Shown here: piece after piece, positions 876 to 36,222 of the stretch | Layout of the letters: each line of letters begins with the position of its first letter | Position numbering within the stretch: position 1 is the stretch's first letter | Assembly: GCA_964361645.1 (NCBI GenBank) | Contig: CAYIBK010000004.1 | Coordinates: 1-54,761, forward strand | Length of the DNA: 54,761 nt | Direction: 5' to 3' | From: an uncultured Gammaproteobacteria bacterium | GTDB lineage: Bacteria > Patescibacteriota > Patescibacteriia > 2-01-FULL-39-33 | Translations under genes and position numbers: made by a program | The notes under the pieces: model-generated | Seen by the model: only the letters and a program-made list of their open reading frames with translations | The model's database searches: none | Told to the model about the DNA's origin: nothing

Positions 876-1058
876 CGTGACTAGCAGGAGTTGAACCTGC
901 GATCTTCAGCTCCGCAAGCTGACGCTCCCCGCCTGCCATCGCCATTGCCCTTAAGAGGAATTGAACCTCTATTTCAAGCTCCGCAAGCTTGCGCTCTATC
1001 CGTTGAGCTATAAGGGCAGGGGCCAGGGCGGGCAGGTATCCAGCTGAGCTATAGCCAC
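876..1058 (-). tRNA. interrupted tRNA-Arg(GCG)-like gene: 22-nt 5' part (1037-1058) and 52-nt 3' part (876-927) split in the D-loop by a 109-nt insert
   Basis: Joined sequence: GTGGCTA TA GCTC AGCTGGATA | GAGC G TCAGC TTGCGGA GCTGA AGATC GCAGG TTCAACT CCTGC TAGTCAC G. It gives a full cloverleaf, with an acceptor stem of 7 bp including one G-U, and a canonical T-loop. Insert flanks pair with each other (CCTGCC/GGCAGG and CGCC/GGCG). Confidence 0.5.
946..1017 (-). tRNA. tRNA-Arg (anticodon GCG), nested inside the insert of the outer tRNA-like gene
   Basis: GCCCTTA TA GCTC AACGGATA GAGC G CAAGC TTGCGGA GCTTG AAATA GAGG(A)TTCAATTCCTCT TAAGGGC A. Clean 72-nt cloverleaf, no encoded CCA. Confidence 0.8.
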
Positions 1059-2245: not shown

Positions 2246-2392
2246 GCTCCTTGTCCTGGGCAAAGCTGAATGCTCCACGGGGTCGCATTCAGCTACGCTC
2301 GTCTTCGCCTCGCTCCTGCCCGTTCGAATCCTGATTTCTTTTCAGAAATTAAATTTTTAATCCAAGGCAATCTTGGTTTAAAAATTTACCTT

Positions 2393-2482
2393 CGGAGAAG
2401 GAGGGATTCGAACCCTCGATACGCTTAAAAAACGTATAACAGGTTAGCAACCTGCCGCTTTCAGCCACTCAGCCACCTCTCC
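2393..2482 (-). tRNA. tRNA-Ser (anticodon GCU), class II
   Basis: GGAGAGG T GGCTGAGTGGCTGAAAGC G GCAGG TTGCTAA CCTGT TATACGTTTTTTAAGCGTATC GAGGG TTCGAAT CCCTC CTTCTCC G. Confidence 0.9.
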
Positions 2483-2531
2483 AAGAATTCAAGGTATCTT
2501 TTAATAAAAAATCAATATTTAATACATATAT

Positions 2532-4105: not shown

Positions 4106-6004
4106 TTATTCTCTGGCTAGCGACTGCTCAAATTCTTTTTTAGCCTGTTCAATCTCTAGTAGTTGCCTAGGATCAGAAGTAATCAACTGATCTTCGGAAT
4201 AGGAAGCCACCACTTTTATGGCTGCATGTTTAGCGCCAGCAAAGAAAATTCCCTCCCCCACTCCGCATTCCAAAAGCAAATATTTTTCTCCTTCGGTTAA
4301 CAAAAATGTTTTTTGGATCAAATCCACAGCCGCCGGAGATTGTTTCATTAACAATTGCAAGGATGAATTATTAACAATAGCCTGGCCGTAAGGGGAAGTT
4401 AAAAAATCGTTAACATCTTGAGTGATGGTAGTAACACCCAAATAATATTTTCGACACCTTTTTACCAGGGCAAATATAAATTTGGCGCTATCCTCTCTTT
4501 GCATCAGCCACCAAGCTTCATCCACTACCAGTATTCTCTTTTTCATTTCGCTTCTAACCACATTCCAGACATAATTAACAATGGTGTATATAGCCAGTGG
4601 CTTCAATTCGTCTTCTAAATCCCTAACGCTAAAAGCTACTAATTGATTATTCATAGCCACATTAGTTGGATTATTAAGCAAGCCGGCAAATGTGCCTTCG
4701 GTATATTTTTTTAATCTCAAAACTATACTTTCCCCATTTTCCATACCTTCTAAAATTTCTTGGAAATCCTGCATTACCGGCGCTTCCACTCGGGATAAAT
4801 CGGCCGCCGAAGTAATATCTTTTTTGGCATAAGTTTCTAGTAGCGCCCGATCAATTATAGAATCTTCTTCTGGGGTGATATCTCCGATCATTAATTTAAC
4901 CAAGCCCTTCACAGTAATAACTGCTCCTCTGATAATATCATCAGCTTTAGCCTCATCCCCAATTGACCGGGGCAAGTCAAAAGGATTTATTTGACTCTCC
5001 GAGTTTAGTGAAACATCAATATATGTTCCTCCCACTGCATCACAAAGATGCTTATATTCCCTTTCCGGATCAATAATGATAACCTCAGTGCCAAACATCA
5101 AACTCCTTAAAACTTCTAATTTTATAGCATAAGATTTACCAGCGCCAGAAGTGGCAAATACCACTGAATTGGCATTTTGAAGAGAAAACCGATCAAATAA
5201 AATCAAACTGTTATTGTGACGATTAATACCAAAGAGCACTCCGCTATCGGAAGTTAAATCAGAGGAAACAAAGGGAAAAGAACTAGCAGACGGAGAGGTA
5301 TTCATATTGATTAAAATCTGCAAATCATCAGAAGCAATCGGCAAAGTGGAATTAAAGCCTTGTTCTGCTTGATAAAAAACCCGGCGTGAATAAACCAAGG
5401 TAGAACCTAAAATATTTTCTATACCCTCACAAGAACTGTCCAAGTCTTCCAAAGTTTTGCCGTAAACCGTAATATACATAGCGGTTTGAAAAAAATGTTC
5501 AATGCCTTGGGTAAGATCATCCCTTAATTTTTCCATGTCTCTAAGGGCGGTTTCTCTTAGGGGGTCGCGGGGAGCGCCTTTTTCAGCATCAGAAATGAGT
5601 CCAGCTTGGAGAGCGCCAACTTTTTTCTTGAGTTGTTTTAAAATAACCGATGCTTTAACTGGATAGAAATAAATAGCAATATCGGCTGTCACATCCATAT
5701 TGATAATTGGAGCAAACCAACCCACACTGATATATCTGGGATATTCAATGACAAAAATTGTTTTAATAAAATAATCACCCAGTTTAAGATAAGAACTGGT
5801 TACTTCCAAAGAGGCTGGAGAAATCAAATCACGAATAGAAACCACACCGCGCCTATAGATCTTCTCCTCTTCTATGGTTTTTTTGCTGGTTTCTATATCT
5901 TGAACCATGACTTCTTTCCTTTGCTGGGCGGTTAGAAGCTGTTCTTTTTCTTGTTCCATTTGCCTTATTTTATCAACTTTGTTTAGTTGACTTGGATCAA
6001 ACAT
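4106..6004 (-). CDS. VirB4/TrsE-like type IV secretion ATPase
   Basis: 632 aa. Walker A is VVFATSGAGKSYAIK and Walker B is KRILVVDEAWWLM. The upstream segment IRDLISPASLEV..YFIKTIFVIEYPRYISVGWFAPI is typical of Gram-positive-type VirB4 proteins. Confidence 0.8.
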   Translation of the reverse strand: MFDPSQLNKVDKIRQMEQEKEQLLTAQQRKEVMVQDIETSKKTIEEEKIYRRGVVSIRDLISPASLEVTSSYLKLGDYFIKTIFVIEYPRYISVGWFAPIINMDVTADIAIYFYPVKASVILKQLKKKVGALQAGLISDAEKGAPRDPLRETALRDMEKLRDDLTQGIEHFFQTAMYITVYGKTLEDLDSSCEGIENILGSTLVYSRRVFYQAEQGFNSTLPIASDDLQILINMNTSPSASSFPFVSSDLTSDSGVLFGINRHNNSLILFDRFSLQNANSVVFATSGAGKSYAIKLEVLRSLMFGTEVIIIDPEREYKHLCDAVGGTYIDVSLNSESQINPFDLPRSIGDEAKADDIIRGAVITVKGLVKLMIGDITPEEDSIIDRALLETYAKKDITSAADLSRVEAPVMQDFQEILEGMENGESIVLRLKKYTEGTFAGLLNNPTNVAMNNQLVAFSVRDLEDELKPLAIYTIVNYVWNVVRSEMKKRILVVDEAWWLMQREDSAKFIFALVKRCRKYYLGVTTITQDVNDFLTSPYGQAIVNNSSLQLLMKQSPAAVDLIQKTFLLTEGEKYLLLECGVGEGIFFAGAKHAAIKVVASYSEDQLITSDPRQLLEIEQAKKEFEQSLARE

Positions 6005-6036
6005 ATTTGGCTTAATTTATTAGGATTTATTTTTAA

Positions 6037-6711
6037 TTATCTCTCAATATCCAGTTTATTTATATCGGCCATCTTTTGGCTTTCGGAAATAGCTGGATTA
6101 TAAGTATTATAAAACAATTCGATTAACGATTGGGTATTTAAAACAGAAGCTCTTAGTCCCATAGATGATAAGCCAGAAACTATCTTATCAACTCCAATAA
6201 AGAGTTCCTTGTGACGCTTGATAAATTCTTTTTGAGTTAATTTAATCAGTTTAGTGGGCGAAATAACATCACTGCCTCTTTGCCAAAAATTTCTTTTTTT
6301 GCTAGAGGTGGGATTATAATAAACCACCACATAAAATCTTTTGGTCATAATATCTCCTAATTCCACTAATTCGGTAATATATTTGCGATATTCTGTGGTT
6401 TGAAGTTTAAGTAAATCATTGGTCTGTTCTTGTTCGGCTCTTTTGATATCTAATAAATAATTATCTAAATTCAATTTTCTGGATTGGATTACTATCTGCA
6501 AAGTTGTATCTAGGGAATTCAAAAAAGATATATAGCCAAAGATGATGGCATTTTGCTCATCTTCTGATTTAAGGGCAAAATTTATGCTGGACACCAAAAG
6601 AATGGCGCGAAGTGTGCCCTCTTTCATCACCATAGTATCATCCCTTATTTCGGAAATGGTCATATAACTTTGGGTACTGGGTGTTGATTTGGTTGCTTTT
6701 CTGTCAGCCAT
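6037..6711 (-). CDS. T4SS-associated protein resembling the extreme N-terminal domain of Gram-positive VirB4 proteins
   Basis: 224 aa. The segment ISEIRDDTMVMKEGTLRAILLVSSINFALKSEDEQNAIIFGYISFLNSL..LQIVIQSRK matches by eye the pattern at the start of TrsE/PrgJ-class VirB4. It lies 32 nt upstream of the ATPase ORF. Confidence 0.45.
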   Translation of the reverse strand: MADRKATKSTPSTQSYMTISEIRDDTMVMKEGTLRAILLVSSINFALKSEDEQNAIIFGYISFLNSLDTTLQIVIQSRKLNLDNYLLDIKRAEQEQTNDLLKLQTTEYRKYITELVELGDIMTKRFYVVVYYNPTSSKKRNFWQRGSDVISPTKLIKLTQKEFIKRHKELFIGVDKIVSGLSSMGLRASVLNTQSLIELFYNTYNPAISESQKMADINKLDIER

Positions 6712-6815
6712 ATTTATTTTATTTTACTAGCTGGTTAGCTTATTAGGTTATGAGATTTATATATTTTCAGTTTTATCCCTAAAAAGCTACAACCTACAAG
6801 CTATTTATTATTTTA
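6712..6815. repeat. AT-rich word-palindrome leader, paralog of 3990-4105
   Basis: Shares roughly 40 nt at its start and the ctacaacctac word with the 3990-4105 leader. Confidence 0.7.
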
Positions 6816-7274
6816 TTATTTTAAATTGTTTATTGAATTAATTATACCTTCTCCTTGATAAACTCCGCCAGTATCCACTATTAAAGACAGTTCTGATAAA
6901 TTGGAAGCGTTGATAATCTGCCTTTTTATTTGAGGCAGAGCTATTTTAATTTCTTCTGGCTGTTTCAAACTCAATTTTATATCTTTGTCACTGATAATTT
7001 TTTTCCAAATTTTAAGTTTGGGATTTTTTAAAGTGGATATAAAATTAAGCAAAAAATTATGAAAAGGCTGGCCATTTATTTTGGCAAAAGCAAAAGTCAT
7101 CACAATGCCAAAAGTTAATAAGCCGGAAACAATAAATAAAGAGAAATCAAAAGATTTATAAAAAATAAAAATAATTATTCCTCCGATTAACATCTCAATA
7201 AACTGGCGAACGGTAATGGGGCCGATAATCTTATCTTCAACATCTAAAAATTGTGGTACGGTTATTTGTTCCAT
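6816..7274 (-). CDS. PrgI family protein (VirB3-like small membrane T4SS component)
   Basis: 152 aa. The N-terminus VPQFLDVEDKIIGPITVRQFIEMLIGGIIIFIFY, followed by a second TM helix, is the characteristic PrgI-family pattern. It sits upstream of the VirB4-like genes, as in Gram-positive T4SS loci. Confidence 0.7.
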   Translation of the reverse strand: MEQITVPQFLDVEDKIIGPITVRQFIEMLIGGIIIFIFYKSFDFSLFIVSGLLTFGIVMTFAFAKINGQPFHNFLLNFISTLKNPKLKIWKKIISDKDIKLSLKQPEEIKIALPQIKRQIINASNLSELSLIVDTGGVYQGEGIINSINNLK

Positions 7275-7305
7275 AAATAAGTTTGTAAAGTATAATGTTT
7301 AAAGT

Positions 7306-7650
7306 TTATAAAGTTTTAATAAAACCAGATAATAATTTAGATATTTCTAATGATTTATTATATAATTCATTAAAATTTAACTTAGAAATATATTTAAATT
7401 TTAATGCCAAATATAACATTGATCGCACCTCTCCACAAGAACCCTTGGCAATATATAAAAAATTTTTAAACTCTTTATTAGTATTTCTTTCAAACCCCTC
7501 AGCTACATTATTCATAATAGAGACGGAAGCTCTTTGAATTTGGTTTTTAAAAGCATAATCATTTAAATTCTTAAAGTTATTATACACCAGAACAGTTAAT
7601 TCTCCAGATTTCTGCCAAGCTATTATATCTTCAAATCTATTTATTTTCAT
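7306..7650 (-). CDS. four-helix-bundle protein (23S rRNA intervening-sequence protein family, TIGR02436-like)
   Basis: 114 aa. The pattern FEDIIAWQKS..L...VY........D..FKNQIQRASVSI.NN.AEGF.R.....F..FL.IA.GS..E is the hallmark of this family. Confidence 0.85.
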   Translation of the reverse strand: MKINRFEDIIAWQKSGELTVLVYNNFKNLNDYAFKNQIQRASVSIMNNVAEGFERNTNKEFKNFLYIAKGSCGEVRSMLYLALKFKYISKLNFNELYNKSLEISKLLSGFIKTL

Positions 7651-7685
7651 TACATTATAAACTTTATAACTTTATAACTTTTTAC

Positions 7686-9143
7686 TTAGTAGCGAAGCTG
7701 ACGATTTAACTCCATCACAGAATTAAATTCCTCTATGGATAGGGTTGGCTTGTTCTCATTTATCCTTTCACTAATTATATCATCAATGCTCCTACCTTGT
7801 CGCATGCTCTCTTGGCCCAGTAATCTATAAAACCGATTAACTTCGCTTTTGTGCCAAGCCTCCACGCCCTCCAATTTTTTGCCGTAGGAATCTTTTTCCA
7901 AAAGTTCTATTTTTTCTTTTATTTTGGCTATGGACTGATGGGGTGTTTCGCCTAATCTTCTAAAATTTATCATGGTCATAGTGGCCAGTTCGTCTATTGG
8001 CCCCACCAACATTCCACCAACTCTCACACCGTCCACTGATTGTTTGCCAAACCTGATATTCTTAGGCAGTGGGGTGGGTTGAGCCATGGGCTGGGGCTGT
8101 GGCGCAATTACCGGTTGTTTTATGGCTATTTTTATCTCTTCTAATTTAGGGCGGGCAACTGGTGGCGGGGGTACAGATGATACCGGTGGAGCAGAGGGAA
8201 ATATTTTAGCTGCTTTTTCATAATTTATAGGTGGAACTTTCTTGGCCTGATTAAAACTTACTATTTTAGGCTTGATCATCAGATCATCACCTTGAGGTGA
8301 TTTAATAACCGGCAAACCATCTTCTTCTTCTATTTTGAGAACAGCAGATAAAACCGGTTTTTCTATTTTATGCTCTTCTACTTTTTTTAACTCTAATGGT
8401 GATTCTTGGATGATAAAATTATTTTTCTTGGCTTCTAAAGTGGTTTTTACCGCCGTAAATGGTTTTTTAACCGGAAAAGAAATATTGTTAATTGATTCTG
8501 ATTTTTTTTCTGCTTTCACTGATGAATCTATTAAAGAAAGCAATCCCTGATCCATTTTTTCTTTAACCAAACTTATAATTTTTTTAGCTTGATCATCTGA
8601 CATTTCCAAACCACCGATTTTTCGGCTTTTTTTTAAAGCTTCCATGGTTTCTATTTCATCGCGAATATCTTTTAATCTAGAAATAATGGCATTTTTCAAG
8701 CGACTTAGAATAACTTCATCGCCATTGGTGCTATAGCCCGATTCAGAAATTATCAACTGCGCCAAAGATGAATAATCGTGCACCTTAAAAGAGTCGGCAG
8801 AAGAAGATATTATTTGTTTTATTTCTTCGTCATCTTCATGAAAAAAAGAAACTGGAGCACTAGATTTTAAAGTGCTTTTATTTTCTCTAATTTTAAAATC
8901 ATTTATTAATTTAGATAATTCATTGCTAACATCGCTAATAGAGTTATTGTCTAAATTGGGAAATCTACTCTTTAAATCTGATAGGACAAAGTCACCAACT
9001 ATTAATTCTATAAAAATCAGCGCCAATTCAATATTATATTGATTTTCTAATTTATTAATAACAGATAAGAACCTTGATGATGAAAGAAAATCACGATCAT
9101 CTTTAGATAATTGATGAAATTTTTGTAAACTATTATTAGTCAT
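7686..9143 (-). CDS. hypothetical protein with Pro-rich central linker
   Basis: 485 aa. The N-terminal roughly 70 aa are paralogous to the 289-aa neighbour (LENQYNIELALIFIELIVGDF versus LEKKYQISLAPLIVYWAIGEV). Central tract is PSAPPVSSVPPPPVARP...APQPQPMAQPTPLP. Confidence 0.6.
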   Translation of the reverse strand: MTNNSLQKFHQLSKDDRDFLSSSRFLSVINKLENQYNIELALIFIELIVGDFVLSDLKSRFPNLDNNSISDVSNELSKLINDFKIRENKSTLKSSAPVSFFHEDDEEIKQIISSSADSFKVHDYSSLAQLIISESGYSTNGDEVILSRLKNAIISRLKDIRDEIETMEALKKSRKIGGLEMSDDQAKKIISLVKEKMDQGLLSLIDSSVKAEKKSESINNISFPVKKPFTAVKTTLEAKKNNFIIQESPLELKKVEEHKIEKPVLSAVLKIEEEDGLPVIKSPQGDDLMIKPKIVSFNQAKKVPPINYEKAAKIFPSAPPVSSVPPPPVARPKLEEIKIAIKQPVIAPQPQPMAQPTPLPKNIRFGKQSVDGVRVGGMLVGPIDELATMTMINFRRLGETPHQSIAKIKEKIELLEKDSYGKKLEGVEAWHKSEVNRFYRLLGQESMRQGRSIDDIISERINENKPTLSIEEFNSVMELNRQLRY

Positions 9144-9177
9144 CTTAATTTGTAGCTGTTTAATTCAATACCAATTA

Positions 9178-10047
9178 TTATTTTCCTTGAGTTTCTTCCA
9201 GTGCTTTAAGCTCCAAAGCTGTCATTTCGCTATCCCGACCACTGCCCATAGCTGATGCTCCCACATTATTATTTTTTTCATCAAGTCGAAGGGGTAAAAT
9301 TTCCCATTGTTCTGATGAGACTTCATCAAAAGTTTGAGAAAAAAACTTCAAATTACGATATAAAAGTAATAATCTGGTTACTGTTTCTTTCTCTTCGTTG
9401 GATAAATTTTTAGTATTGGCAGAATTAGTAATATATTGTGATAAATTTACAGTAGTAAAATAATCAGTGCCATTTTTAGCTATAAAATCACTAAGCCAAC
9501 TAGCCACTGTGGGTTCTGCTGATTTACCAGAAATATTTATCAAACCTGGGGTTATTTTTTCTTTATTATCATAAAGAGCTTTTTCCATTGACCCAAAAAA
9601 ATTATGGTCTTGTGATAAAATTGTAAAAATCCGGCTGTTTATGGCATTAATAATAACTGGATGATTATTTAATTCTTCTTTTAGTTGATTTTTTAATATT
9701 TCCAAGATTATCAATTTTTCCTGACTCATAGAAATATTGGTTTTAGCAGGACTAGCATCTAAGAAAATTAGTCTTTCATTAATTGGTTTGATAATTTTCT
9801 CTATTATTTCCGGCTCAATTTGGCCAGCCAATTTTTCTTCGAGTTCTAATTCTTTTTTTAGATAATCTTTGATTTGATCAACTTTAACCTCACCAATCGC
9901 CCAATAAACAATTAAGGGCGCTAAACTGATTTGATATTTTTTCTCTAAAGCAGTTATTTTTTCAGCCGCCCAATTACTATCAATAGTCAAAACTACTTCT
10001 GGAGCTAAATTTTTAAATTTTTCCAAAGCTTCTTCAAGATAAATCAT
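9178..10047 (-). CDS. hypothetical protein (shares N-terminal module with 7686-9143)
   Basis: 289-aa ORF, 14 nt from the upstream gene. No recognisable family. Confidence 0.6.
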   Translation of the reverse strand: MIYLEEALEKFKNLAPEVVLTIDSNWAAEKITALEKKYQISLAPLIVYWAIGEVKVDQIKDYLKKELELEEKLAGQIEPEIIEKIIKPINERLIFLDASPAKTNISMSQEKLIILEILKNQLKEELNNHPVIINAINSRIFTILSQDHNFFGSMEKALYDNKEKITPGLINISGKSAEPTVASWLSDFIAKNGTDYFTTVNLSQYITNSANTKNLSNEEKETVTRLLLLYRNLKFFSQTFDEVSSEQWEILPLRLDEKNNNVGASAMGSGRDSEMTALELKALEETQGK

Positions 10048-10061
10048 AGATTAACTTTTTA

Positions 10062-12575
10062 TTATTTGGTAATGACTGTTGATTCATGATCTTCCACTGT
10101 TTTGGCTAATTTATCATTCGTGGTAGATATATCATGTGTCTTTATTTTATTTAAATCAGCAATAATCTGGGAGAAATGTGATACATCACCGCCACCTTTT
10201 TTATAAGCAGCCAAACCTTGTTTTAAGCCAACTAAATTGCCTGCTTCTTCTTTTTTTATGGAGTTACCAGCTAAAATACCATTTTGTATTGTCTGGAGAG
10301 TAGAAGACATCTGCCTTAGGGCATTAACTGATTTATCAGAACCATCAGATAATGATTTGAAAAACCGTTCATGTCTAGCTGTTTGTCCACTCTCAGCATG
10401 AAAAGTAGATTTTCCAAATCCACTAATATCGGCGCCACCAGCTAAAGAGGCTATTAGCTTCTCTATATCTGCCTTTTCTTTTGTTATTTTTTTGACTGTA
10501 TCCATAGTAACCTTATTGGGGTGGTAATCGCCCCATTGTTTTTGCATCCAAGTTGGATCACCAATAGCTTGTACTCTAGTTTCATGACTTTTATCAGCCG
10601 ATTCTTTGTCTCTTTCAAATCCTTTATTTAGTCCCTCTACGCTTGTTTTGTGCAAATCCTTTAATTCAGTTGCTACTTCAGAAAAAATTTCTTTTCTAGC
10701 CGCATCAACTAATGGCTTAGAAAATATTGCTGGTGCGGTTCCGCCATTATTGGCTATAACCCTATCTTGGACTCTTTTATCTAAACCATTGCCAGTACCT
10801 GCATCAAACACATTGTGATCAATTAAGGCTCGTTGTTTTACTGTTTCAGTTTTAAGATAATCGTCTTGATCACTTACGGCCTTATCTTTACTTGTTTTCA
10901 ATTGTTCTTTATCGGCATCTCTTTTTATTTCACTATTTTCTTTTTGACCCTTTCTATTTTTTTCACCTTTGGCCACAACAGTCTTTAAAAGAGGAGAAAA
11001 AGCTGCTGCCGAAGCCGCCATAGCCGGAATCCAAGCCAACCCGCCAGTTGCTGCCCCAGCTGCTAAAGCGCCAACACCAACTGCAGCTTGTGTGGCTAAT
11101 TTCGCTCCTTGACCCAAACGACTGTTAGCAACACCACCCCAAGCCTCAACTGCTTCATCACCCATACCCAGTTTTTTAAATAGTTTTTCTCTTTTGTCGG
11201 TTTTAGCTTTAGCACGAGTTTTTAACAAATCACCACGATAAGCTCCAGCAAATTCGCCAACTTTCTTAAAACTATCAACCCTACCCAGTGGTGTTTTGGT
11301 TAAGAGAGCACCACTGACACCCAAAGCGCCCGTGCCAACTCTCTTAGCTGTTCCAATGCCCACTTTCTGGCTCAAACCAACGGTCGCACCTTTGCCCAAT
11401 TTCTGCAAAGTGCTAATACCCTTACCAGCCCACTGGGCACCGGCCACACCAGTTTTTTGGCCGGCCACCAAACTGCCAACCATTAAACCAATAATTATTA
11501 GAAAATCAATGATTCCTGCTGGTGTCTCCATTTGTGTTAAGCCCAAGCCTGGAGGCGCATCACCTGGTTTAATAGTTGGATTATTGGTTGTATCACCGGC
11601 ACCACCTGCTGTGGGAATTGTTCCTGGATCTTTATCAAAACCACTAGGACTACCAACATTCACCGAACCACTAAAAAATGAAAGATAAAGAAAAAATAAC
11701 ATTACTGGCCCAACCACTAAATATTTGGCTAATTCGCTCCACCACATACCAGCATACTGCTGGCCTTTGGGAAAAGTGGTCAGCAAAAACGCCAAAGGCG
11801 AAAGAATAACCAAAAACCACAACATTATAATCCTATAAATTAATATTATTATTATTATAGCTACTACCACCACCGCTACCACCGATAAAATCAAGGCAAA
11901 AAGCATGGTTCGTATGGCTTTAGCTGCATCGATCCCGGGAATTTCTGCTGTCCATTTAATATTAGAAACATTTAGTCTATACAATTTATCCAAGCCCAGA
12001 GCAAAAAGCAGAATATTGCCTTCGTTGCCAATTTCTTTAATTTTAGTAGCAAACCATAAAGTGAGCACTTGGGAAAAATCAATCAGAATACCAGTAAACA
12101 TTTTAGAAAAATTGATCAAAACTGCCATCACCAGCAGTTTGGGCAAAAGCTGGCGGTTATAATTGGGCACTCGCAAAATTGTGCCCACAGCAATCACCAG
12201 TAGTATAACAATAAAAAAATTATTGGCTACATCCCGGACGATGCCCCAGCCATTGATAACCACCTGCTGATCCAAAAATTTATTATAGGTTGCCACTAAA
12301 ACTAAAGTTTGGATTAAAAGGGCCACAAACCAACTAAAGAAAGTGGCGATGTAGTATAAGATCCAAGCCACTATATTGGCGATGGCGTCTGCTGTTGGTG
12401 AAGCATTGGCTGATGTTCCTTGGACTGGTATCAAATCCCCAGTAGCAGTCCTAGCTGCAGTTTTATATACCGAGGAATTTTGAGCCATAACATTATTCCC
12501 AAAACCTAAAACCACACCCAACAAAACCACTATTAGCATAACCACGCTGATTAATTTTTTCCTAGTTGGAGTCAT
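10062..12575 (-). CDS. polytopic membrane protein, VirB6/TrbL-like, with long hydrophilic C-terminal extension
   Basis: 837 aa. It has a signal/TM helix, then at least 6 hydrophobic helices (for example IVAWILYYIATFFSWFVALLIQTLVLVA, FFIVILLVIAVGTIL, LFALILSVVAVVVVAIIIIILIY), a Gly/Ala-rich region and a charged tail. The position in a VirB3/VirB4 locus supports the call. Confidence 0.5.
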   Translation of the reverse strand: MTPTRKKLISVVMLIVVLLGVVLGFGNNVMAQNSSVYKTAARTATGDLIPVQGTSANASPTADAIANIVAWILYYIATFFSWFVALLIQTLVLVATYNKFLDQQVVINGWGIVRDVANNFFIVILLVIAVGTILRVPNYNRQLLPKLLVMAVLINFSKMFTGILIDFSQVLTLWFATKIKEIGNEGNILLFALGLDKLYRLNVSNIKWTAEIPGIDAAKAIRTMLFALILSVVAVVVVAIIIIILIYRIIMLWFLVILSPLAFLLTTFPKGQQYAGMWWSELAKYLVVGPVMLFFLYLSFFSGSVNVGSPSGFDKDPGTIPTAGGAGDTTNNPTIKPGDAPPGLGLTQMETPAGIIDFLIIIGLMVGSLVAGQKTGVAGAQWAGKGISTLQKLGKGATVGLSQKVGIGTAKRVGTGALGVSGALLTKTPLGRVDSFKKVGEFAGAYRGDLLKTRAKAKTDKREKLFKKLGMGDEAVEAWGGVANSRLGQGAKLATQAAVGVGALAAGAATGGLAWIPAMAASAAAFSPLLKTVVAKGEKNRKGQKENSEIKRDADKEQLKTSKDKAVSDQDDYLKTETVKQRALIDHNVFDAGTGNGLDKRVQDRVIANNGGTAPAIFSKPLVDAARKEIFSEVATELKDLHKTSVEGLNKGFERDKESADKSHETRVQAIGDPTWMQKQWGDYHPNKVTMDTVKKITKEKADIEKLIASLAGGADISGFGKSTFHAESGQTARHERFFKSLSDGSDKSVNALRQMSSTLQTIQNGILAGNSIKKEEAGNLVGLKQGLAAYKKGGGDVSHFSQIIADLNKIKTHDISTTNDKLAKTVEDHESTVITK

Positions 12576-13193: not shown

Positions 13194-16100
13194 TTAATTT
13201 TTATTAACCACTAGATTAATATAATGCGGTGAGTTCTCGTTCTCGCAATTATCTGCTGGAATAGCGCTGTCAAAAGTGCAATTGGACTTATTCCAATTAT
13301 CATAAACCTGTACGATAACTTGTATGGTACAACTATCACTATCACAGATACTTGATGGAGCACCCTTAACTTTCCAAAAATCATACAAATGGTACAGAAG
13401 GAAAGGATTTTCAATATTGGTTCTGTTTCTTAATAATACACCACTTACCTTGGAATGCTCACCATCGCCCCAGGTGACAGTATAAGCGGAAATAGGCAAT
13501 TGATCAGGATCTATTAAGGTAGTAAAAGCCAACTTAGCCAAACCAACACCGCCATTAATGGTGGGTGGCTTATTACTGGCGTTATCTTTATCGTTTATTT
13601 TTATTTTAGTTACTTTTGGCTTAACATAACAAGGATCGTTAGTGGATTCTTCTCTGGTAGCTTTATTACAAATTTCAGTTGGGATAGACAAGAAATCATT
13701 AGTATCGTCTGATGCATAATAACCGCCCCTTTCAGCATCGGGTTTAAAACAATTATTAGGAAGACCAACTAGACACAAATTCCATTTCCATTTCCACTGG
13801 CCATAACTTTGAGCAAATAATTGCTCTAAACCTGCCTTACTGTGCAATTCACCCATTCTAGCCTGATATGGCGCAACAAAAGCACCTAATCGTGGTGGTT
13901 CATAGAACAGCGGCATATTATAAAGCCCTCTTCTACTGCTCCAATTGGTGGGATTAGGACTGCCACTAAGTTGTTGAGCGTTAAGTTCGTTGGCGGCACT
14001 ACCCGAGGAGTTAAGAAGACTGCCCATGGGCGAAACTATGGCTCCAAACGGCTGGTAATCGGAAGATTGATACTTAGACCTTCCTAGTGGAGAAAAATCA
14101 TCGCCTATTGAAATTGGTATAGCATCAGGAATAGCACCGGTAATCCTAGCCCATATTTGATATATAGTTCTAGATGCTGCACCAGATATACTACCAGGAA
14201 AATCCAAAGCAGTTCCTCCGATATATTGCCCTAAAGGATTTTCTATTGAATCAAGAAACTGATTGTAATCAAATGGATCATAATAATAATATTTGCCTTC
14301 TTTTATATCAATGGGTCCAGGCGTATCTGGGCGAGCTGCTATATCATTATTAATATAGCCAGAACCCTTGGTTACTCTATTGGCATAAGCTTTGTTTTCT
14401 CCGGATGAGGTTACCACTCGAACCAGCTTGTTACAGTAATTAACTTCAAAATCACCGCTAACCAGCATAGTAATACCCACCACATCAGCATTGGCGGTTG
14501 ATTTAACAAACCAAGACACACCCAGTATATCACCGGGCAAATCAGGAATGGGATCAGAAGTACCGCCACTGGTAATACCACTAGCTTGCCTGTCTTCTAT
14601 TACCTTTAAACCCATTAGAGGGCCAAAAGCTACTTGACCTCCGCCCATACCAGAGCTATTAAATATTCCAGTGATCATTTCAATAACCTGTCCAATTGGA
14701 CCAGATGCTAATTTATAAGGAATTGGAATTGGTATACAAATACCAATTTCAGTACTCTCTATTGGAATTGCAATGCAAAATGGGATAGCCGCCCAACCTT
14801 TCCATTCCTTTTTCTTAATATCATAAGTCATTGTATGATTAACAGGAATCATAATGGAGGGAGTCCCGCCAGCCAAGCCCATACCATTGGCCTTCACTTT
14901 AATTCTATCCACATAAGGGAATCTAAATATCGGCCGATAATCATCTTTCACTCTAAAAGGCGAAAAATTCATCTGATTACCACTGTTGGTATCAAAATAA
15001 CCGGCTACCGCTTCTTGAGCTTCCGAGCTAAGTGCTAAGGCATAACCAAATTCAGTAAAGTTAACAGTAAAAGATGATTTATCAACACAATAATCCAAAG
15101 GCACCCTGTCGTTATAACCGCCAACTTCGTTTAAGACTTCTCCTTGTAATTGATCCACTGGCCACCACTGCAAACATTGCTTGGAGTTGCTAGGATCAGC
15201 CAATAAACAGTAGCCATAACTGCCATAGAACAAATTATTGCCTTGCAAATACCTACAAGAAAGGGAATCTTCAGCCGGATAAATACGGCAACTTCTGGAA
15301 ACATATTTATCAATTAAGTTATCACTATTACTAACTTGCAACACCGGCTTAAGAGAAATGTCATCAAACAAAGCCACTCCGCCCAATTTGCAGGCAGTTA
15401 ATTTATTAGTATCATTGCAACCGTCCTCATCAACAAAATTTTTCAATTTAATCTTTATTTTGTCGGTATCAGCTAAGGGTGTAAATTGATGCACTTTTTT
15501 AGTCCAAGTCAGGCCACTATCCAAAGATAAACTGCCACAAGACGAGCTATCACAAAGCGAAGCATCATCAAAAAATTTCCAAGTGCTCCAACCGCCTCCT
15601 TCGGCATGCTGGCTGTATTGAATTTGGGATTTAATCGGTACATTACCATCGGGATAATTCAAGCCGGAGGAATTAATCCAGCCAGAAAGAATATAAGGAC
15701 TGCCGGCAAAAACATCTATTTCTTCGGAAATGGCTTCGTAGAAAGAGCTTAAAGACAAATATCTGGAGCCCTCGGGACTGCTTTTTATATCGGTAATCGT
15801 GCTAAACTTATAATCATGCCAGCCGATAGCTTCTGATTTAAATTTTTCCAATATCCCTCCATTGTCGATTGACTCTGACGGACTCCAACCTAAGGGTTCA
15901 ACAGAATTAACCACTAAAGATTCAAAACTGCCATTGGTTACCGAGCCGGAATCGCCAAATTGGCTCATGGTATAAAAGGGGAAATAGCCGGCCACACCCA
16001 AACTCTTTTTACCCACCGAAGAATAACCGGTCTTATAAATATCTTTTTCACCGTAATTTTCGGTAGCTAGTGTGCCTGATTTCAAGATGAAGTTATTGCA

Positions 16101-19100
16101 AACGCCTTTATCATCCACCGAAGCGCACAAGCCCAAATCCAAACAACGATCGTTGTTGCCATAAATAGGATCAACGCTATTGGGATCATCTTTTTCATAA
16201 GTGGTGCAGTAAAGCCAGCTATAGCAAGTTCTATCTGGCTGAACTTTCAAAATAACATTGGAGTCCCCCGTATCAGGCGGAGTAGGAGTTTTGGGAGTAA
16301 GCGGTTTTTGATCCGGATCTTTCATTTGTTTTCTATAGGTGGCATCGGCATCAAAAGTAAGATAATTGGCGTTTCTTTCTAGGACCTCACTGGAAGAATA
16401 ATTCATAGATCCACGATCATTAAACAAAACACAACCGGAGTTGTAATCCACTAAACCATTACAACTTGAATAATCCACCTTATTAGATAAGGAATAATAA
16501 ACACCGGATCGAACCAATCTTAAATTTTTAACTGGTTGATCGGAGGGTAAAAACACTTTGGCCGAACAAATGTCAGATGAATTGTAAACTACATAAAGAC
16601 GGCCGCTAACAGATTTGGGCCAAGCTTTATTACCGCCGTGAATATCCAAACTTGAATCAGGAGAAACAATTAGGCCAGCACAAGAATCATCTAATTTAAT
16701 ATAAGCTTTGTCTGCCACATCTTCTACCGAAAAAGAATAAAGTGTATGAGATAATAAGCTCACCTTCTGAAATAGTTCGGATCCTCTTACTTCCCAATGA
16801 TCTGGTATGTCATTTCCATCAACATCCTGATCCAATTTAACATTTAAAATTTCGTTTTTATAAACCTCGGTTGAAGGATCAATATACTCGGTGCAACTGT
16901 TTTGATCAGTGGGGCAAAGCCCAACCCAGCTTTCATAATTAGCGATTGTGTCAATATTTGTTTGCCACTGGTAATGGTCTGCGCCTGGTGTTAGATAACT
17001 GTTAAACCAGCCCACGGGCTGTAATTTATCATCTTTAGAGCCGGTGCCAATGGTTTGCAAATAAGTAACATCACAAACTTCATTGGTGCCTTTCTGATAC
17101 CATTTGGCTTGGGTTTCGCCGACTTCGGTTCTATATTCGCAAACCCTATCTCTTGGATCCTTAAAATAAGCCACACTTCGAGGGCCAACAAATTCTTCAC
17201 ACCACATAGAACTGGATTTACATAAATCAGTAGAGTACCTGTCGGGCTGATTTTTGATATAAGAAGTGGCGTGGCCCACAACTTCGTCCTGATTATTGAT
17301 GTTGGGCAAGCCTAAAGCCGAACAACCCTTATCATCAGATTTACAACTGTATTTGGCATCATTAACCATATAAACAAAATTATCATCTGGCACCACCACT
17401 TGGGACGAATCACCAGCATTGAAAGTAGCACCGTAATAAGAGTCGGAATTATAAGTATCAATTAATTGCTCACAGCCCACAGCATCGGCTCGGCATAAAT
17501 TTTCAAACGATTTCAAAAACCAAGTCTGCTTGGATCTATCGCGGTATTCTTGGCAACCAATCATTTTTCCCGGATTAGACCTTTCTGGATTTAGGGCATC
17601 GCCTGCGCCATATGGCTCATCAATATTATTATCGCAAGAGAAGGGCGTAAACCAAGAATTTTCAATAGCATAAACGCTTTGAGGTAATTCTTTGAGTAAA
17701 ATATTATCAATATAGATTGTTTGGCCAGCTGGAATATTTATTTCTACATTCTGTTCAAAATAACCGGTGTTACTTCCCCAATTCACCATAACCGGGCCAA
17801 GATCATAACGATTCCATTCAGCGGTTATGGGAATCAGTAAATCATCATCGGTTACCACATTGGGGTGGCCCACCATAAATGAATCTTCTGGTGGCGCCTG
17901 TGAGAATCTAACTGAATCCAGATTAAAACTATCATCGCCTTTGGCCCAGAAACTAATGGAATACGATTTGTCTTTTCTAATTAAGACTGGTTTAGAAAAT
18001 TTTCTGGAATCATTGGTATTATTGGTAAGAGAATTTCCGCCCGGATGAGTAGCTTCGGTGGCCACAGTTCCGCCCTGCCAGCCCATAGCGCCTGATTCAA
18101 AATTTGATAAAAATATATTCTTAAAGCTACTGCCCTTATTACCGGTGTATTCCCGGCAACCTTTTAAATTAGTTGAGCAAGTTCCGCCCTGGCCGGGAAT
18201 AGCCATATAAATACATTCATTGAAAGAATTGAAGTAGCCTTGGTTGGCCCTACAATCTTGAGCCGCTTCGCTATTATCGTTTTGAGTTTGAGTTCTTCTA
18301 TAAGGGTGACAATTATCATCAGCATAAATCACGCGCGACAATAAACGATAATGAATGTTACCCTCGGTATCGTATAATTCGCGACAATCCGGATTGGAGT
18401 TTAAATCAGTTGCAAGACAAGCGGCATTATTAGTATCTGGATCATTACTTGGAACAGGATCGGTGCAAACATTATTGCCATTTAAATCATTGGGGTAACT
18501 TATATTGGTGCAGGGGGCAATACCCAAACCAGCAGTATCATTTGATTCTTTCAAAGTAAAAACTTTAAGCTGATAGCCGGTAGTATCACTGCCTTCCCAA
18601 GTGTAATAAGTGGCCTCATCATCATAAGCATCGGGTTTTTGGCAAGTTCTAAGCTGGGTGTAATACTCCAGGGCTTCACCGCCTCGGTCAATTTCATCCA
18701 AATTAGTAAACTCATCACAACCGGCAGCAGAGGCCGAGCAAGCTTGTATGGGAGCTTTATTGATAAATTGCTTATATTTGGCAGAAACAAAATTAGTTGG
18801 CTCTTGTTTGTAAACCTGATAACCGGCGCACTCCGAGGGGCAGACATCAGCAGAAGTAATGGTGCCAGGAACAGCTGGATCACGATTGACGGGAGTATAT
18901 AATTCGCAGTTCATTTCGCTGGCTATACAAACACTGGAATAATTAGAGCAAGCCTGATTACGCCTTAAAATAACTTGCTGAAGCTCGGCTAAATCAGTTG
19001 GCCAATCGCCACTAACTGTTAAATAACAATCGTAGTAATTTGGCGCTTTTTTAAGATAAGTCAATTGTGAAGCTGGCCTTTGTGATGGATTATAAGAAGT

Positions 19101-23397: not shown

Positions 23398-23497
23398 GTC
23401 ATTGCGAGTAGATCCCTCGGAAACTCGGGACAGGCTCCGCAATCTCGTGTTCGTTTCAAATGGGATTGCTTCTCCGCCCTGGGCGGATCGCAATGAC
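23398..23497. repeat. A-type palindromic element
   Basis: gtcattgcgagtagatccctcggaaactcgggacaggctccgcaatc ... gggattgcttctccgccctgggcggatcgcaatgac. Confidence 0.9.
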
Positions 23498-35004: not shown

Positions 35005-35016
35005 ATATATTTAAGC

Positions 35017-35260
35017 GTCATTGCGAGGGAGCAAAGCGAACGAAGTAATCCCAATTCCTCTAATATGAGATTGTCGCGTCGCCCTCAAGCTCACCGCAAT
35101 AACGGTGTGTTTGTCATTAGCGAGCCTGCCTGCCGGCAGGCAGGGAACGAAGCAATCTGACACGAAGCGTCATCCCGACCCCGCACTTGATGCGGGGAAA
35201 GGGATCCCTTGGTTTTATTACTATGGGATTGCTTCTCCGCCCTGGGCGGATCGCAATGAC
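35017..35260. repeat. composite A-type elements with nested B-type palindrome (35124-35143) and a nested gtcatcccgac-type sub-element
   Basis: gtcattgcgaggg..., then gtcattagcgag|cctgcctgccggcaggcagg|gaacgaagcaatc ... gggattgcttctccgccctgggcggatcgcaatgac. Confidence 0.85.
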
Positions 35261-35286
35261 GATTATTTGCATGATAATTAAACAAT

Positions 35287-35315
35287 AAAAAAAGCGAGGA
35301 GTATTTCATCCTCGC
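35287..35315 (-). terminator. rho-independent terminator of GC-rich cassette 1
   Basis: Minus strand GCGAGGATGAAATACTCCTCGC followed by TTTTTTT. Confidence 0.7.
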
Positions 35316-35336
35316 ACTAATTTTGTTTGGTTGGCT

Positions 35337-36080: not shown

Positions 36081-36193
36081 TTTGAAGCCTCCAGTTTTGC
36101 GGTTAAATAACCGCGCCCAAGTTCTAAATAGCGCTACTATGCGCTTTATAGACAGATTAAAGGTACTTTAGAGCCGTACTTGTACGACTTAGT

Positions 36194-36222
36194 ATCTTAT
36201 CATAAATAAGAAATTATGTCAA
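36194..36222 (-). promoter_or_regulatory. sigma70-type promoter of cassette 1
   Basis: Minus strand TTGACA-17 nt-TAAGAT. Confidence 0.5.

Follow-up and report, generated by a model that had tools for sequence, protein, structure and literature searches.

A tRNA-Arg gene nested in the D-loop of a second tRNA-Arg gene in a groundwater patescibacterium, probably carried by a hairpin-bounded replacement cassette

RESULTS

Organization of the nested tRNA-Arg locus

The window analyzed here is a stretch of 54,761 nt from a groundwater Patescibacteria (CPR) genome, in which a tRNA-Arg(GCG) gene on the minus strand is broken between A21 and G22. The 5′ part of this outer gene (1037–1058; tRNA positions 1–21) reads GTGGCTA TA GCTC AGCTGGATA and comprises the acceptor 5′ strand, the D-stem 5′ strand and the D-loop, ending in GGATA; the assignment was based on the sequence, on ARAGORN analysis of the spliced halves and on contiguity with position 927 in two relatives (X9 and X11). 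The 3′ part (876–927, minus strand; positions 22–76) supplies the D-stem 3′ strand, the anticodon arm, the variable loop, the T arm and the acceptor 3′ strand. The joined halves form a perfect tRNA-Arg(GCG), and ARAGORN, applied to the locus without 928–1036, called a 76-nt tRNA-Arg(gcg) with 4/4 stems intact and one acceptor-stem G-U pair. The arrangement of one tRNA-Arg inside the D-loop of another, with a perfect outer cloverleaf containing a single G-U, is therefore as the initial annotation had described it; only the discriminator, G at position 876, which leaves 927–877 for the remainder of the cloverleaf, had been glossed over.

The outer halves are separated by exactly 109 nt, which divide, as had also been read previously, into an intact 72-nt tRNA-Arg(GCG) gene and two flanks of 19 and 18 nt. 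On the minus strand, the left arm CCTGCCCGCCCTGGCCCCT (1018–1036, 19 nt) begins with a conserved terminus of 9–10 nt, the left 9 nt of which were set by the search pattern described below. It is followed by the inner tRNA (946–1017) and by the right arm ATGGCGATGGCAGGCGGG (928–945, 18 nt), whose last 10 nt, GGCAGGCGGG, form the other conserved terminus. The inner gene was recognized by ARAGORN and scored 71.7 bits against the Rfam tRNA model (gathering threshold, 29); its body is all but identical to that of the lone native gene occupying this locus in a relative (L006), and it is presumed to be functional. Pairing between the arms spans ∼16 positions. At the outer end of each arm, 10 nt have a conserved sequence (CCTGCCCGCC in the left arm and GGCAGGCGGG in the right). 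The pairing of the flanks proposed in the initial annotation was recovered in the minimum-free-energy fold of 876–1058 (−84.3 kcal/mol, z = −4.3), in which the inner cloverleaf sits atop a stem of CCUGCC/GGCAGG, CGC/GCG and GGC/GCC. Here, the 5′ junction (AUA) faces the 3′ junction (CGGGG) in one 3x5 internal loop; in an alternative register, the 3′ junction lies within a helix continuous with the D stem.

A second “tRNA” placed at 876–945 by ARAGORN (Rfam, 36.9 bits) was rejected, being the cassette right arm posing as a 5′ half, with four non-standard acceptor pairs. An archaeal origin of the DNA was likewise rejected: the leucyl-tRNA synthetase (LeuRS) is of bacterial type (1041 bits), and the neighbors are Patescibacteria genes. 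A scan of 550–1700, which is uninformative for CPR promoters, gave neither a sigma-70-like promoter nor a terminator on the minus strand, and no Rfam intron matched the locus even at E values up to 10. Among ∼39 ORFs of the 54-kb window searched with NCBIfam and Pfam, none encoded a transposase, integrase, HUH protein, EndA or RtcB. Small GIY-YIG proteins adjoin tRNA fragments at four other loci (L139, L146, L148 and L161); a tblastn search of the window with such proteins gave no match.

Older tRNA debris beside the nested genes

Adjacent to the nested genes, between 692 and 860 on the minus strand, lies a series of older pieces. A GC-rich imperfect hairpin, GCGCCCGCCCGCC...CGTCGGGCGGG (818–860), which is also present in the X11 relative, abuts the GAGC of an older tRNA fragment in a 21/22-type junction. 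That fragment (762–817) is the dead remnant of an older inner-type tRNA-Arg, from which the anticodon arm has been deleted and into whose T arm a 20-nt palindrome, CCTGCCTACCGGCAGGCAGG (774–793), has been inserted. There follows the right arm of an older cassette, ATAGGCGATGGCAGGCGGG (743–761), nearly identical to 928–945 and again next to GAGC, and then the oldest remnant (692–742), corresponding to positions 22–76 of an inner-type tRNA-Arg with several substitutions, mostly C/G to T; a partial Rfam tRNA match of 13.9 bits was obtained at 699–754. These remnants are earlier cassette generations at the locus. A related palindrome, CCTGCCTGCCGGCAGGCAGG, occurs at no fewer than nine (at least 9) dispersed sites in the window (17 overlapping matches versus 0.02 expected), and the CCTGCCCGC...GGCAGGCGGG family itself is found within the window at the tRNA-Arg locus only.

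Uninterrupted alleles in close relatives

Close relatives contain the outer gene without interruption. In a 6.1-kb contig from X11, whose neighboring ORF is 95.3% identical, position 927 is joined straight to 1037, with zero differences within the outer halves (876–927 included) and with no letters at the joint that fit either side (“both = 0”). The same 927/1037 joint is present in a contig from X9. Comparison of the occupied site, in which the cassette lies between GGATA and GAGC, with the empty site GGATAGAGC revealed neither a target-site duplication nor microhomology. Given that relatives ∼95% identical carry an uninterrupted outer gene, the 109 nt represent an insertion/deletion polymorphism, discrete and with clean ends, and not an assembly artefact. 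One contig from X9 contains a 21-nt scar, CCTGCCCGCC/TGGCAGGCGGG, which fits an internal cassette deletion between TGGC repeats; hairpin-only forms can therefore derive from cassettes.

In each of three independent Hainich assemblies (L001, L002 and L003), 469 nt likewise separate the upstream ORF from the next gene, and L001, the only one of them in which the tRNA region was read, is identical there to the window. The nested form was also observed in an 8.6-kb contig from a different study (X5). In L006, L008, L010-12, L230, L231 and L234, one plain inner-type tRNA-Arg(GCG) lies between the same ORF and recG.

Recurrence of the cassette in other metagenomes

Metagenomes were scanned with the pattern TAGCTCAN{2,3}GGATACCTGCCCGC, which fixes the left terminus together with an Arg-type D-loop, so that ascertainment bias affects how broad and how specific the family seems. 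The 5′ junction GGATA/CCTGCCCGC was found at 35 loci, against roughly one expected by our estimate. A compact design, in which the outer gene is split at 21/22 by a cassette of 102–153 nt (102–113 nt in 10/13), was present at 13 distinct loci, the window included. Conserved sequences mark both cassette ends, CCTGCCCGC at the left one and GGCAGGCGGG at the right one; the right terminus, GGCAGGCGGG/GAGC, is exact in 12 of the 13 compact loci, and this end was free in the search pattern. In a comparison of 21 elements, no sequence variation was seen at the 10 terminal positions, which include one conserved U-G and one conserved C-A non-pair, and the interior is variable; at arm positions 11–16, pairing is kept partly by changes on both sides.

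The inner gene has the sense orientation relative to the outer one at all 13 compact loci, and the two anticodons are the same (GCG, CCT or CCG) in 12/12 loci with a readable outer anticodon, for which our arithmetic gives a chance probability of about 7e-6. The single TCT cassette (L160) lies in a gene whose anticodon is unreadable. Insertion always followed ...GGATA (AGTA in L033), a left flank partly imposed by the pattern, and was without duplication. The same termini and the 21/22 site recur in four Arg isoacceptor families and in a tRNA-Thr, and L157 contains a same-ended cassette in an anticodon loop. Hairpin-only insertions of 36–45 nt with the same termini occupy 21/22 in L033, L136, L146, L148, L157, L159, L162 and L166; L145 and L232 contain hairpin-only copies in tandem.

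When a genome collection was scanned with the 14-mer GGCAGGCGGGGAGC, only L033 and possibly L042 were relevant among the matches listed, the others being chance matches in high-GC genomes. Viral contigs scanned with the junction motifs gave only high-GC chance matches, none in a tRNA context, and these scans provide no evidence for a phage vector. A search of RNA runs gave none that covers the window locus or that of L145. Neither a cassette copy outside a tRNA locus nor an identical cassette in two unrelated outer genes of one genome was found, and transposition, as opposed to recombination, is consequently not proven.

Contrasting fates of the outer and inner genes

ARAGORN detected the inner gene at 13/13 compact loci, and the spliced outer gene was normal at 8/13; a ninth (L133) was called with an abnormal anticodon loop. 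The difference in intactness corresponds to a hypergeometric p of about 0.02 by our own calculation. The outer exons at the 5 damaged loci of the 13 contain indels, extra palindromes and mismatches. L133 and L141 are sister loci with 100% identity in the inner tRNA and in the arms. Damage to the outer anticodon arm differs between them: one has an 8-nt loop, and the other a substitution, two inserted palindromes and a deletion in the D stem. In every case, the interrupted gene encloses an intact one with the same anticodon.

Some outer genes resemble inner genes from elsewhere. The outer gene of L147 matches the inner gene of L153 (95%), and the outer gene of L145/L232 matches the inner gene of the window (87%) and carries the same linkers, CTGGCC..CT and ATGGCGAT. 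The same type of tRNA thus occupies the inner position in one genome and the split outer position in another, which indicates that successive cassettes have displaced each other at the same locus. The outer gene of the window shows no visible decay, as expected for a recent insertion and by itself no sign of inactivation; it is best read as a very recent pseudogene, and its cloverleaf may still be perfect because the insertion happened so lately.

DISCUSSION

From the sequences compared here, the most likely account of the locus is that a cassette entered a resident arginine tRNA gene, killing the resident and replacing it. Of the two readings offered by the initial annotation, this is the one in which the outer gene was inactivated by a palindromic element with a tRNA in its loop; it is strengthened by the clean-ended polymorphism and is extended by the recurrent family with conserved termini and by the decay of outer genes in other lineages in which the inner genes are intact. 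More generally, hairpin-bounded tRNA cassettes probably disrupt and functionally replace their cognate resident genes. The cassette of the window is a complete, apparently promoter-less tRNA-Arg(GCG) gene between two pairing arms; its insertion would inactivate the resident, and it would be expressed by read-through from the resident's transcription signals. The inner tRNA would be freed from the chimeric transcript by RNase P and 3′-end processing, its fold insulated by the arm helix, and the outer halves would remain as non-functional fragments. Only insertions into a cognate isoacceptor gene would be expected to survive, since only those supply a replacement. More tentatively, the cassette could be a non-autonomous mobile element, moved in trans by a hypothetical enzyme that recognizes the conserved termini and a single-stranded or looped target, and the event in the window could be very recent. 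The best analogy might be with HUH/IS200-IS605- or REP/RAYT-like systems, considering the hairpin ends, the precise empty sites and the lack of target duplication.

Spread by a route that involves no dedicated mobile element is unlikely but has evidence in its favor. Here, homologous or short-homology recombination and gene conversion would act among tRNA-Arg copies that already bear a D-loop hairpin, for example after uptake of related Patescibacteria DNA, so that the conserved junctions would be inherited and not recreated; the outer gene would still be a pseudogene and the inner one functional. L007 and L232 differ only in their leftmost 5′ part, which is native in one case (GTCCTCA, preceded by native upstream DNA) and of the cassette type in the other (GCCCTCA, accompanied by the remnant of a left arm), and this difference looks like an exchange inside the conserved D-arm. 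Several loci have near-identical inner and outer central regions with differing acceptor and T stems, the best-conserved part of tRNA-Arg genes borders the insertion site, and the search of the window ORFs for a transposase was negative. However, one inherited junction would hardly explain the occurrence in four Arg isoacceptor families and a tRNA-Thr, and clean ends free of microhomology, the uniform cassette size (102–113 nt in 10 of the 13) and same-ended cassettes in anticodon loops that share no D-arm homology (L157) also argue against this route. A two-step origin, in which a hairpin-only palindrome entered the D-loop and captured a tRNA later, for example at a break at the hairpin tip, would mean that the cassette is not a unit, and we consider it very improbable. 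The eight hairpin-only insertions at 21/22 with the same termini and the tandem copies in L145 and L232 are compatible with it, but the intermediate would be without a functional copy of a single-copy tRNA gene, and every hairpin-only case is an otherwise truncated gene beside an intact copy. Moreover, linkers and tRNA are co-inherited in two different contexts, and the scar in X9 fits deletion from a cassette, so that hairpin-only forms can be derived. That the structure is an assembly or binning artefact, a chimeric read join of two tRNA-Arg genes, has a negligible probability: tRNA genes recur in different members of the community, and the Logan unitigs are broken in this region, but the structure is identical in L001, the spacing is the same in L002 and L003, the 8.6-kb contig of a different study is colinear, and more than 12 other metagenomes contain the same architecture.

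It is very unlikely that the outer gene still works. The inner tRNA would then be released by RNase P and RNase Z, and the outer pieces would either be trimmed and ligated, making the insert a protein-dependent bacterial tRNA intron able to host another tRNA, or stay unjoined and act as a two-piece, nicked tRNA whose parts are kept together by acceptor-stem, D-stem and arm-helix pairing. The perfect cloverleaf of the spliced outer gene here and at 7 other nested loci is consistent with this, as are the conserved helix-forming ends with a variable interior, which have the look of a protein-processed intron, and the position of the insertions in loops (21/22, 35/36 and 37/38), like that of archaeal introns. 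By contrast, the bulge-helix-bulge motif is absent from the fold of 876–1058, in which two 3-nt bulges 4 bp apart were not found, and the conserved C-A non-pair argues for recognition of sequence rather than helix. Every interrupted gene has an intact companion of the same anticodon, which would be needless if the interrupted one worked; outer genes gather indels, mismatches and further palindromes whereas inner genes are invariant, and close relatives have the uninterrupted gene. Neither a splicing endonuclease nor RtcB is encoded among the window ORFs tested, and a 2014 review names no introns of bacterial tRNA genes other than the self-splicing ones of groups I and II (PMC4033280). The second reading of the initial annotation, a split tRNA with its halves kept in contact through pairing of the flanks, is therefore not supported: it lacks the bulge-helix-bulge motif, and it is further countered by the constant presence of an intact same-anticodon gene and by the unconstrained outer halves of the sister loci. 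There is only a slim chance that the insert is removed from the RNA by a bacterial activity recognizing the CCUGCCCGCC/GGCAGGCGGG ends, with young outer genes still functional. Were this so, protein-dependent tRNA introns hosting a second tRNA would exist at 21/22 and in anticodon loops, and one transcript would yield two tRNA-Arg molecules, the outer one joined or in two pieces.

Full-text literature searches revealed no description of tRNA-in-tRNA nesting or of D-loop hairpin insertions in bacteria, in agreement with the initial annotation, which knew of no bacterial example. On the replacement reading, this locus and at least 12 parallel loci suggest a distinct route of tRNA gene turnover in Patescibacteria: a promoter-less minigene with hairpin ends would enter a cognate gene, take over its expression context and leave nested debris, and repeated replacement would build “Russian-doll” tRNA loci. 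Should the cassette indeed be mobile, it would represent the smallest type of element to become indispensable through replacement of an essential gene, and its invariant 10-nt termini would offer a direct handle on the enzyme, which would be site-specific and act without target duplication. In practical terms, standard tRNA finders miscount nested loci, here reporting the false tRNA at 876–945 and missing the outer gene, and this affects tRNA inventories and completeness estimates of metagenome-assembled CPR genomes.

Bacterial tRNA genes have been described as structurally uniform, with self-splicing introns as the only exceptions (PMC4033280). Like those group I/II introns, the cassette is an intervening sequence inside a bacterial tRNA gene; the group I introns of bacterial tRNA genes are self-splicing ribozymes of at least 200 nt located at 37/38 (PMC4033280). 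The insert described here, by contrast, lies in the D-loop, consists of a tRNA plus 37 nt and has no Rfam intron match.

Archaea have split and tri-split tRNA genes (Nanoarchaeum, Caldivirga) as well as non-canonical introns, whose splicing takes place at bulge-helix-bulge motifs; interruptions at D-loop positions are known among them. Disrupted archaeal tRNA genes have been reviewed (PMC4033280 and PMC3218864), and the latter review notes a proposed connection of recently split tRNAs with mobile elements. The present locus shares with archaeal split tRNAs a gene in pieces, GC-rich complements after the 5′ piece and before the 3′ piece, and an interruption in a loop. It differs in belonging to a bacterium with a bacterial-type LeuRS, in having no bulge-helix-bulge motif, in the redundancy of the interrupted gene with a nested gene of the same anticodon, in the decay of the outer pieces and in its presence/absence polymorphism among close relatives.

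Integrative elements that target tRNA genes (phages, ICEs and islands) restore the tRNA gene by carrying a copy of the displaced part (see, for example, Williams 2002). As with these elements, the landing site is a tRNA gene, the host keeps a working tRNA, and repeated events leave arrays of fragments (compare 692–860). Known integrative elements, however, are kilobases long, encode an integrase, duplicate only a 3′ (rarely a 5′) segment and have their crossover point in the anticodon loop, the T loop or the 3′ end, whereas the cassette is 109 nt long, has a complete replacement tRNA as its sole gene, occupies the D-loop at 21/22 and has no shared core. The window contains no integrase, and the flanking tRNA pieces are complementary halves and not direct repeats.

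Short palindromic non-autonomous elements comprise REP/REPINs with their RAYTs, palindrome-associated elements derived from IS200/IS605, the Rickettsia palindromic elements and the GC clusters of yeast mitochondria. We know of none that carries a tRNA as cargo or targets a cognate tRNA gene. The cassette differs from them in that its ends pair together and not each into its own subterminal hairpin, and in that RAYT/TnpA is absent from the window ORFs scanned with Pfam. In common with these elements, it forms a GC-rich imperfect palindrome in an AT-rich genome, has conserved ends and a variable interior, and inserts into genes, including RNA genes, without target duplication and with precise empty sites. 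The literature on elements of this kind includes PMC10969869, PMC4478555 and PMC3119063. The conserved terminal inverted repeats around a variable interior and the presence/absence at a precise empty site resemble MITE- or REP-like elements; the lack of a target-site duplication argues against a DDE-type MITE and agrees with an HUH, REP or site-specific mechanism. The constant sense orientation of the cassettes and their position directly 3′ of a short fixed target, again without duplication, match the pattern of IS200/IS605- or RAYT-type elements.

Layout of the nested locus

On the minus strand, positions 1-21 of an outer tRNA (1058-1037; GTGGCTATAGCTCAGCTGGATA) are followed by a 19-nt left arm (1036-1018; CCTGCCCGCCCTGGCCCCT), an intact 72-nt tRNA-Arg(GCG) (1017-946), an 18-nt right arm (945-928; ATGGCGATGGCAGGCGGG) and positions 22-76 of the outer tRNA (927-876, where 876 is the discriminator G). 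The arms and inner gene are referred to here as the cassette. The initial annotation had read an outer cloverleaf from the two end segments, an intact inner gene and pairing of its flanks, and each was borne out. When joined in silico, the outer halves gave a 76-nt tRNA-Arg(gcg) in ARAGORN with every stem intact and one G-U pair; the inner tRNA scored 71.7 bits against Rfam tRNA; and the predicted fold of 876-1058 (-84.3 kcal/mol, z = -4.3) was an arm-arm stem with the inner cloverleaf at its tip. A further "tRNA-Arg" at 876-945 (minus strand), called by ARAGORN and by Rfam (36.9 bits, above the gathering threshold), was rejected as a miscall with four non-standard acceptor pairs, in which the right arm poses as a 5' half joined to the outer 3' part. 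Automated tRNA counts would be wrong for genomes with such nested loci.

The window sequence was found in groundwater metagenomes, has an overall GC content in the mid-to-high 30s percent, and encodes a bacterial-type LeuRS, Elp3, VirB4-, PrgI- and TrbL-like proteins and housekeeping genes. For the 167-aa ORF upstream, homologues carry Buchananbacteria, Falkowbacteria or Patescibacteria labels. Given that this ORF and the 469-nt spacing to the next gene are the same in three independent Hainich assemblies (L001-L003; the tRNA region was read in L001 only, where it is identical to the window), and that 746-1500 is covered, colinearly and at ~98.5% identity, by an 8.6-kb contig from another study, the nested structure is not an assembly artefact.

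Empty-site and scar alleles

A 6.1-kb contig from sequencing run X11 aligned to 805-927 and then straight to 1037-1591. Its ORF is 95.3% identical to that of the window, and the outer halves show 0 differences. The joint omits exactly 109 nt, with no letters that fit either side, and the same 927|1037 joint was present in one contig from run X9. When empty, the site has the sequence GGATAGAGC; when filled, it is GGATA|cassette|GAGC. Comparison of the two revealed no target duplication, microhomology or target-base loss. The 109 nt are a discrete insertion/deletion polymorphism. A more distant contig of X9 has, at the cassette position, a scar of 21 nt, CCTGCCCGCC|TGGCAGGCGGG, which fits an internal cassette deletion between TGGC repeats. 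Filled and empty alleles do not differ in their outer halves, so an outer cloverleaf as perfect as the window's reflects recency and is not evidence of function.

Recurrence and termini

In L007, a related locus with an ORF 82% identical at the protein level to that of the window, the nesting is reversed: the outer gene is of the window's inner type, split at 21/22, and the insert comprises CCTGCCCGC..., a complete tRNA-Arg(GCG) of another type and ...GGCAGGCGGG. A scan of metagenome contigs for TAGCTCAN{2,3}GGATACCTGCCCGC returned 35 loci (~1 by chance, on our own estimate); the pattern imposed an Arg-type D-loop and the left terminus, and family breadth and specificity are therefore biased. 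Compact cassettes of 102-153 nt (102-113 nt in 10 of 13) lie between tRNA positions 21 and 22 in 13 distinct loci, the window's included. The right terminus GGCAGGCGGG recurs in 12 of these although absent from the search pattern, and all 13 inner tRNAs lie in the sense orientation. Inner and outer anticodons are the same in all 12 loci with a readable outer one (GCG, CCT or CCG), for which our arithmetic from observed anticodon frequencies gives a chance probability of ~7e-6; in L160, the only TCT cassette, the outer anticodon is not readable. Most other scan loci have an intact tRNA-Arg ~20-110 nt from the junction, the outer 3' part being truncated, replaced or lost at a contig end. Cassettes with the same ends also occupy anticodon loops (L157 at 35/36, L162/L165 at 37/38), with a matching inner anticodon each time, and the tRNA-Thr of L033, from a GTDB genome, has a D-loop hairpin and, within an older copy's anticodon, a complete nested tRNA-Thr. 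The tRNA-in-tRNA arrangement is recurrent across Patescibacteria metagenomes.

The anticodon-loop inserts in older same-anticodon copies (L033 4486-4945, L157 and L162/L165; Thr-CGT, Arg-TCT and Arg-CCG) have related boundaries, GC-rich and complementary to each other, and a 21/22 hairpin is often present in the outer copy as well.

The outer 16 nt of each arm were aligned for 13 cassettes and 8 hairpin-only elements, that is, inserts with cassette-type termini without an inner tRNA. Arm positions 1-10 are sequence-invariant on both sides; a U-G is conserved in 21/21 elements and a C-A non-pair in 20/21. Positions 11-16 are variable, with partial pairing kept and some changes on both sides, and the covariation score is weak (0.136 versus 0.092 on shuffling, with 6 of 500 shuffles scoring at least as high). 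Given the conserved non-pair, the alignment points to recognition of the ends by sequence rather than mere helix formation. At the loci examined, all hairpin-only elements with these termini sit at 21/22 of truncated tRNA genes beside an intact copy.

Hairpin-only elements also occur head to tail in L145 (= L007) 691-800, L232/L233 and L154, the right terminus abutting the next left one (GGCAGGCTGG|CCTGCCCGCC); L232 and L233 differ by one such copy. A 20-nt GC-rich palindrome, CCTGCC(T/G)GCCGG(C/T)AGGCAGG, has at least nine dispersed sites in the window (774, 2213, 12874, 35125, 36409, 36656, 43706, 48555 and 50093; 17 overlapping matches versus 0.02 expected), several inside longer GTCATTGCGAGC...GAAGCAATC repeats. 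Another short repeat, (G)GGATTGCTTCTCCGCCCTGGGCGGATCGCAATGAC, with a GC-rich hairpin core and AT-rich flanks, has three copies (23474-23491, 35237-35254 and 50031-50048).

Outer decay and locus history

ARAGORN gave normal tRNA calls for 13/13 inner genes and 8/13 spliced outer genes (hypergeometric p ~0.02, own calculation). A ninth outer call, in L133, has an abnormal anticodon loop of 8 nt. Elsewhere, the outer gene has an additional 37/38 hairpin (L134), combines an acceptor mismatch with T-loop damage (L151), shows an aberrant anticodon arm with a T-arm insertion (L160) or retains part of a palindrome in its T loop (L167). The sister loci L133 and L141, with flanks differing by 5-10%, have identical inner tRNAs and arms and differently damaged outer anticodon arms, L141 bearing two palindrome insertions and a D-stem deletion. 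Inner genes are thus conserved while outer genes decay.

Pairwise comparison revealed two matches between outer and inner genes of different loci: L147 outer with L153 inner (95%), and L145/L232 outer with window inner (87%). The outer gene of the second match lies, in L232 and L233, between what remains of a left arm (CCTGC..TCTGGCCTCT) and a right arm (ATGGCGATGGCAGGCAG), and these linkers are those of the window cassette. Given these matches and common linkers, tRNA and linkers travel together, the tRNA of one cassette becoming the target of the next.

In other relatives (L006, with an ORF of 93% nucleotide identity to the window's, L008, L010-12, L230, L231 and L234), the ORF is followed by one plain tRNA-Arg(GCG) and then recG. 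Given that the body of this tRNA is nearly identical to the window inner tRNA, the acceptor stem differing by a compensatory pair, the inner gene is of the native type of the locus and the outer gene of a different tRNA-Arg(GCG) lineage. Comparison of orthologous loci, proposed in the initial annotation, returned relatives with an uninterrupted outer gene (X9, X11) or this single plain gene.

Older debris lies downstream of the outer gene. A GC-rich hairpin (818-860) abuts the GAGC of an inner-type tRNA fragment (762-817) without an anticodon arm and with the 20-nt palindrome inside its T arm. Beyond lie a second right-arm copy (743-761) and a decayed tRNA 22-76 segment (692-742) preceded by GAGC. 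Given three copies of the unit "GGCGGG|GAGC + tRNA 22-76", the locus is a record of several tRNA-Arg gene generations.

The CGN-decoding tRNA-Arg of this locus (window 946-1017) has a GCG anticodon in all relatives examined (L006-L012, L230-L234). Bacterial CGN-decoding tRNA-Arg is usually of the ACG (inosine) type, and an ACG gene was seen in L166.

Other features of the window and related loci

The tRNA-Ser(GCT) gene at 2392-2483 (minus strand; region 2197-2580) is flanked by older tRNA-Ser remnants. Upstream, on the minus strand, are a 5' fragment (2566-2580; GGAGAGGTGGCAGAT) and a GC-rich hairpin (2533-2565); downstream, a T-arm/acceptor remnant (~2322-2333 and 2197-2208, minus) is split by a ~110-nt insertion containing the palindrome CTGCCTACCGGCAGGCAAG after AAATCC, a T-arm site of the kind seen at 774-793. 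In this genome, live-in-dead nesting therefore extends beyond tRNA-Arg.

In L146/L161 (~1085-1900, minus orientation), L148 and L139, a small GIY-YIG nuclease ORF (~85-105 aa) directly follows truncated tRNA-Arg(TCT) 5' fragments bearing a D-loop hairpin. This unit is tandemly repeated, with an intact tRNA-Arg(TCT) at the end in L161, and could represent either another type of tRNA-targeting element or a candidate for the partner enzyme.

A type IV secretion-like cluster (4106-12575 and 13194-22415, minus) includes a VirB4-like ATPase (CD1110 family, 350 bits), a PrgI-like protein and a TrbL/VirB6-like 837-aa protein, and adjoins a 3073-aa ORF without assigned function. The region 35000-38200 has a GC content of 0.52-0.53 versus the usual 0.3-0.45, is flanked by palindrome copies (35125, 36409 and 36656) and may be foreign DNA; its ORFs at 35337-36080 and 37265-38110 (minus) gave no Pfam match.

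Interpretation and comparison with known systems

In the best-supported reading of these sequences, the 109-nt insert is a unit and the outer gene a pseudogene that lost its function only recently. The insert would be a promoter-less tRNA gene between conserved inverted termini that lands in the D-loop of a cognate resident tRNA gene and, expressed from the context of that gene, replaces it. Matching anticodons and sense orientation would be the residue of selection if only self-compensating insertions survive. The initial annotation had offered two readings, of which inactivation by a palindromic insert is supported by the indel polymorphism, recurrence and outer decay. The other, a split tRNA, is not supported: the predicted fold of 876-1058 has no bulge-helix-bulge motif, an intact twin is always present and outer genes decay, all of which make an outer tRNA that works in split or intron-like form unlikely. 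Origin of the nested loci by recombination only is a possible alternative, given that L007 and L232 have different 5' pieces leftmost, a difference suggesting that these loci are shaped by D-arm recombination as well.

Under the pseudogene and mobile-unit reading, the clean ends, precise empty sites, hairpin termini, loop targets and fixed orientation suggest that cassette movement may resemble HUH chemistry (IS200/IS605, REP/RAYT) more than DDE transposition or integrase recombination. No mobilising enzyme was found among the window ORFs, so we infer the HUH-type step from these features.

According to a 2014 review (PMC4033280), bacterial tRNA genes are structurally uniform, with group I/II introns as the only exceptions. 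Literature searches returned no description of a tRNA-in-tRNA arrangement, in agreement with the initial annotation, which knew of no described bacterial example. Archaeal split and intron-containing tRNAs have complementary GC-rich junction sequences in common with the window locus, but the latter differs from them in motif, essentiality and constraint. The cassette has the target-restoring logic of tRNA-targeting integrative elements, whereas size, enzyme, crossover site and duplicated part all differ. It is a palindromic mini-element like REP, palindrome-associated elements, Rickettsia palindromic elements and mitochondrial GC clusters, none of which, to our knowledge, carries tRNA cargo or targets cognate genes. 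In kind, the cassette is related to palindromic non-autonomous elements and to tRNA-targeting, self-compensating insertions.
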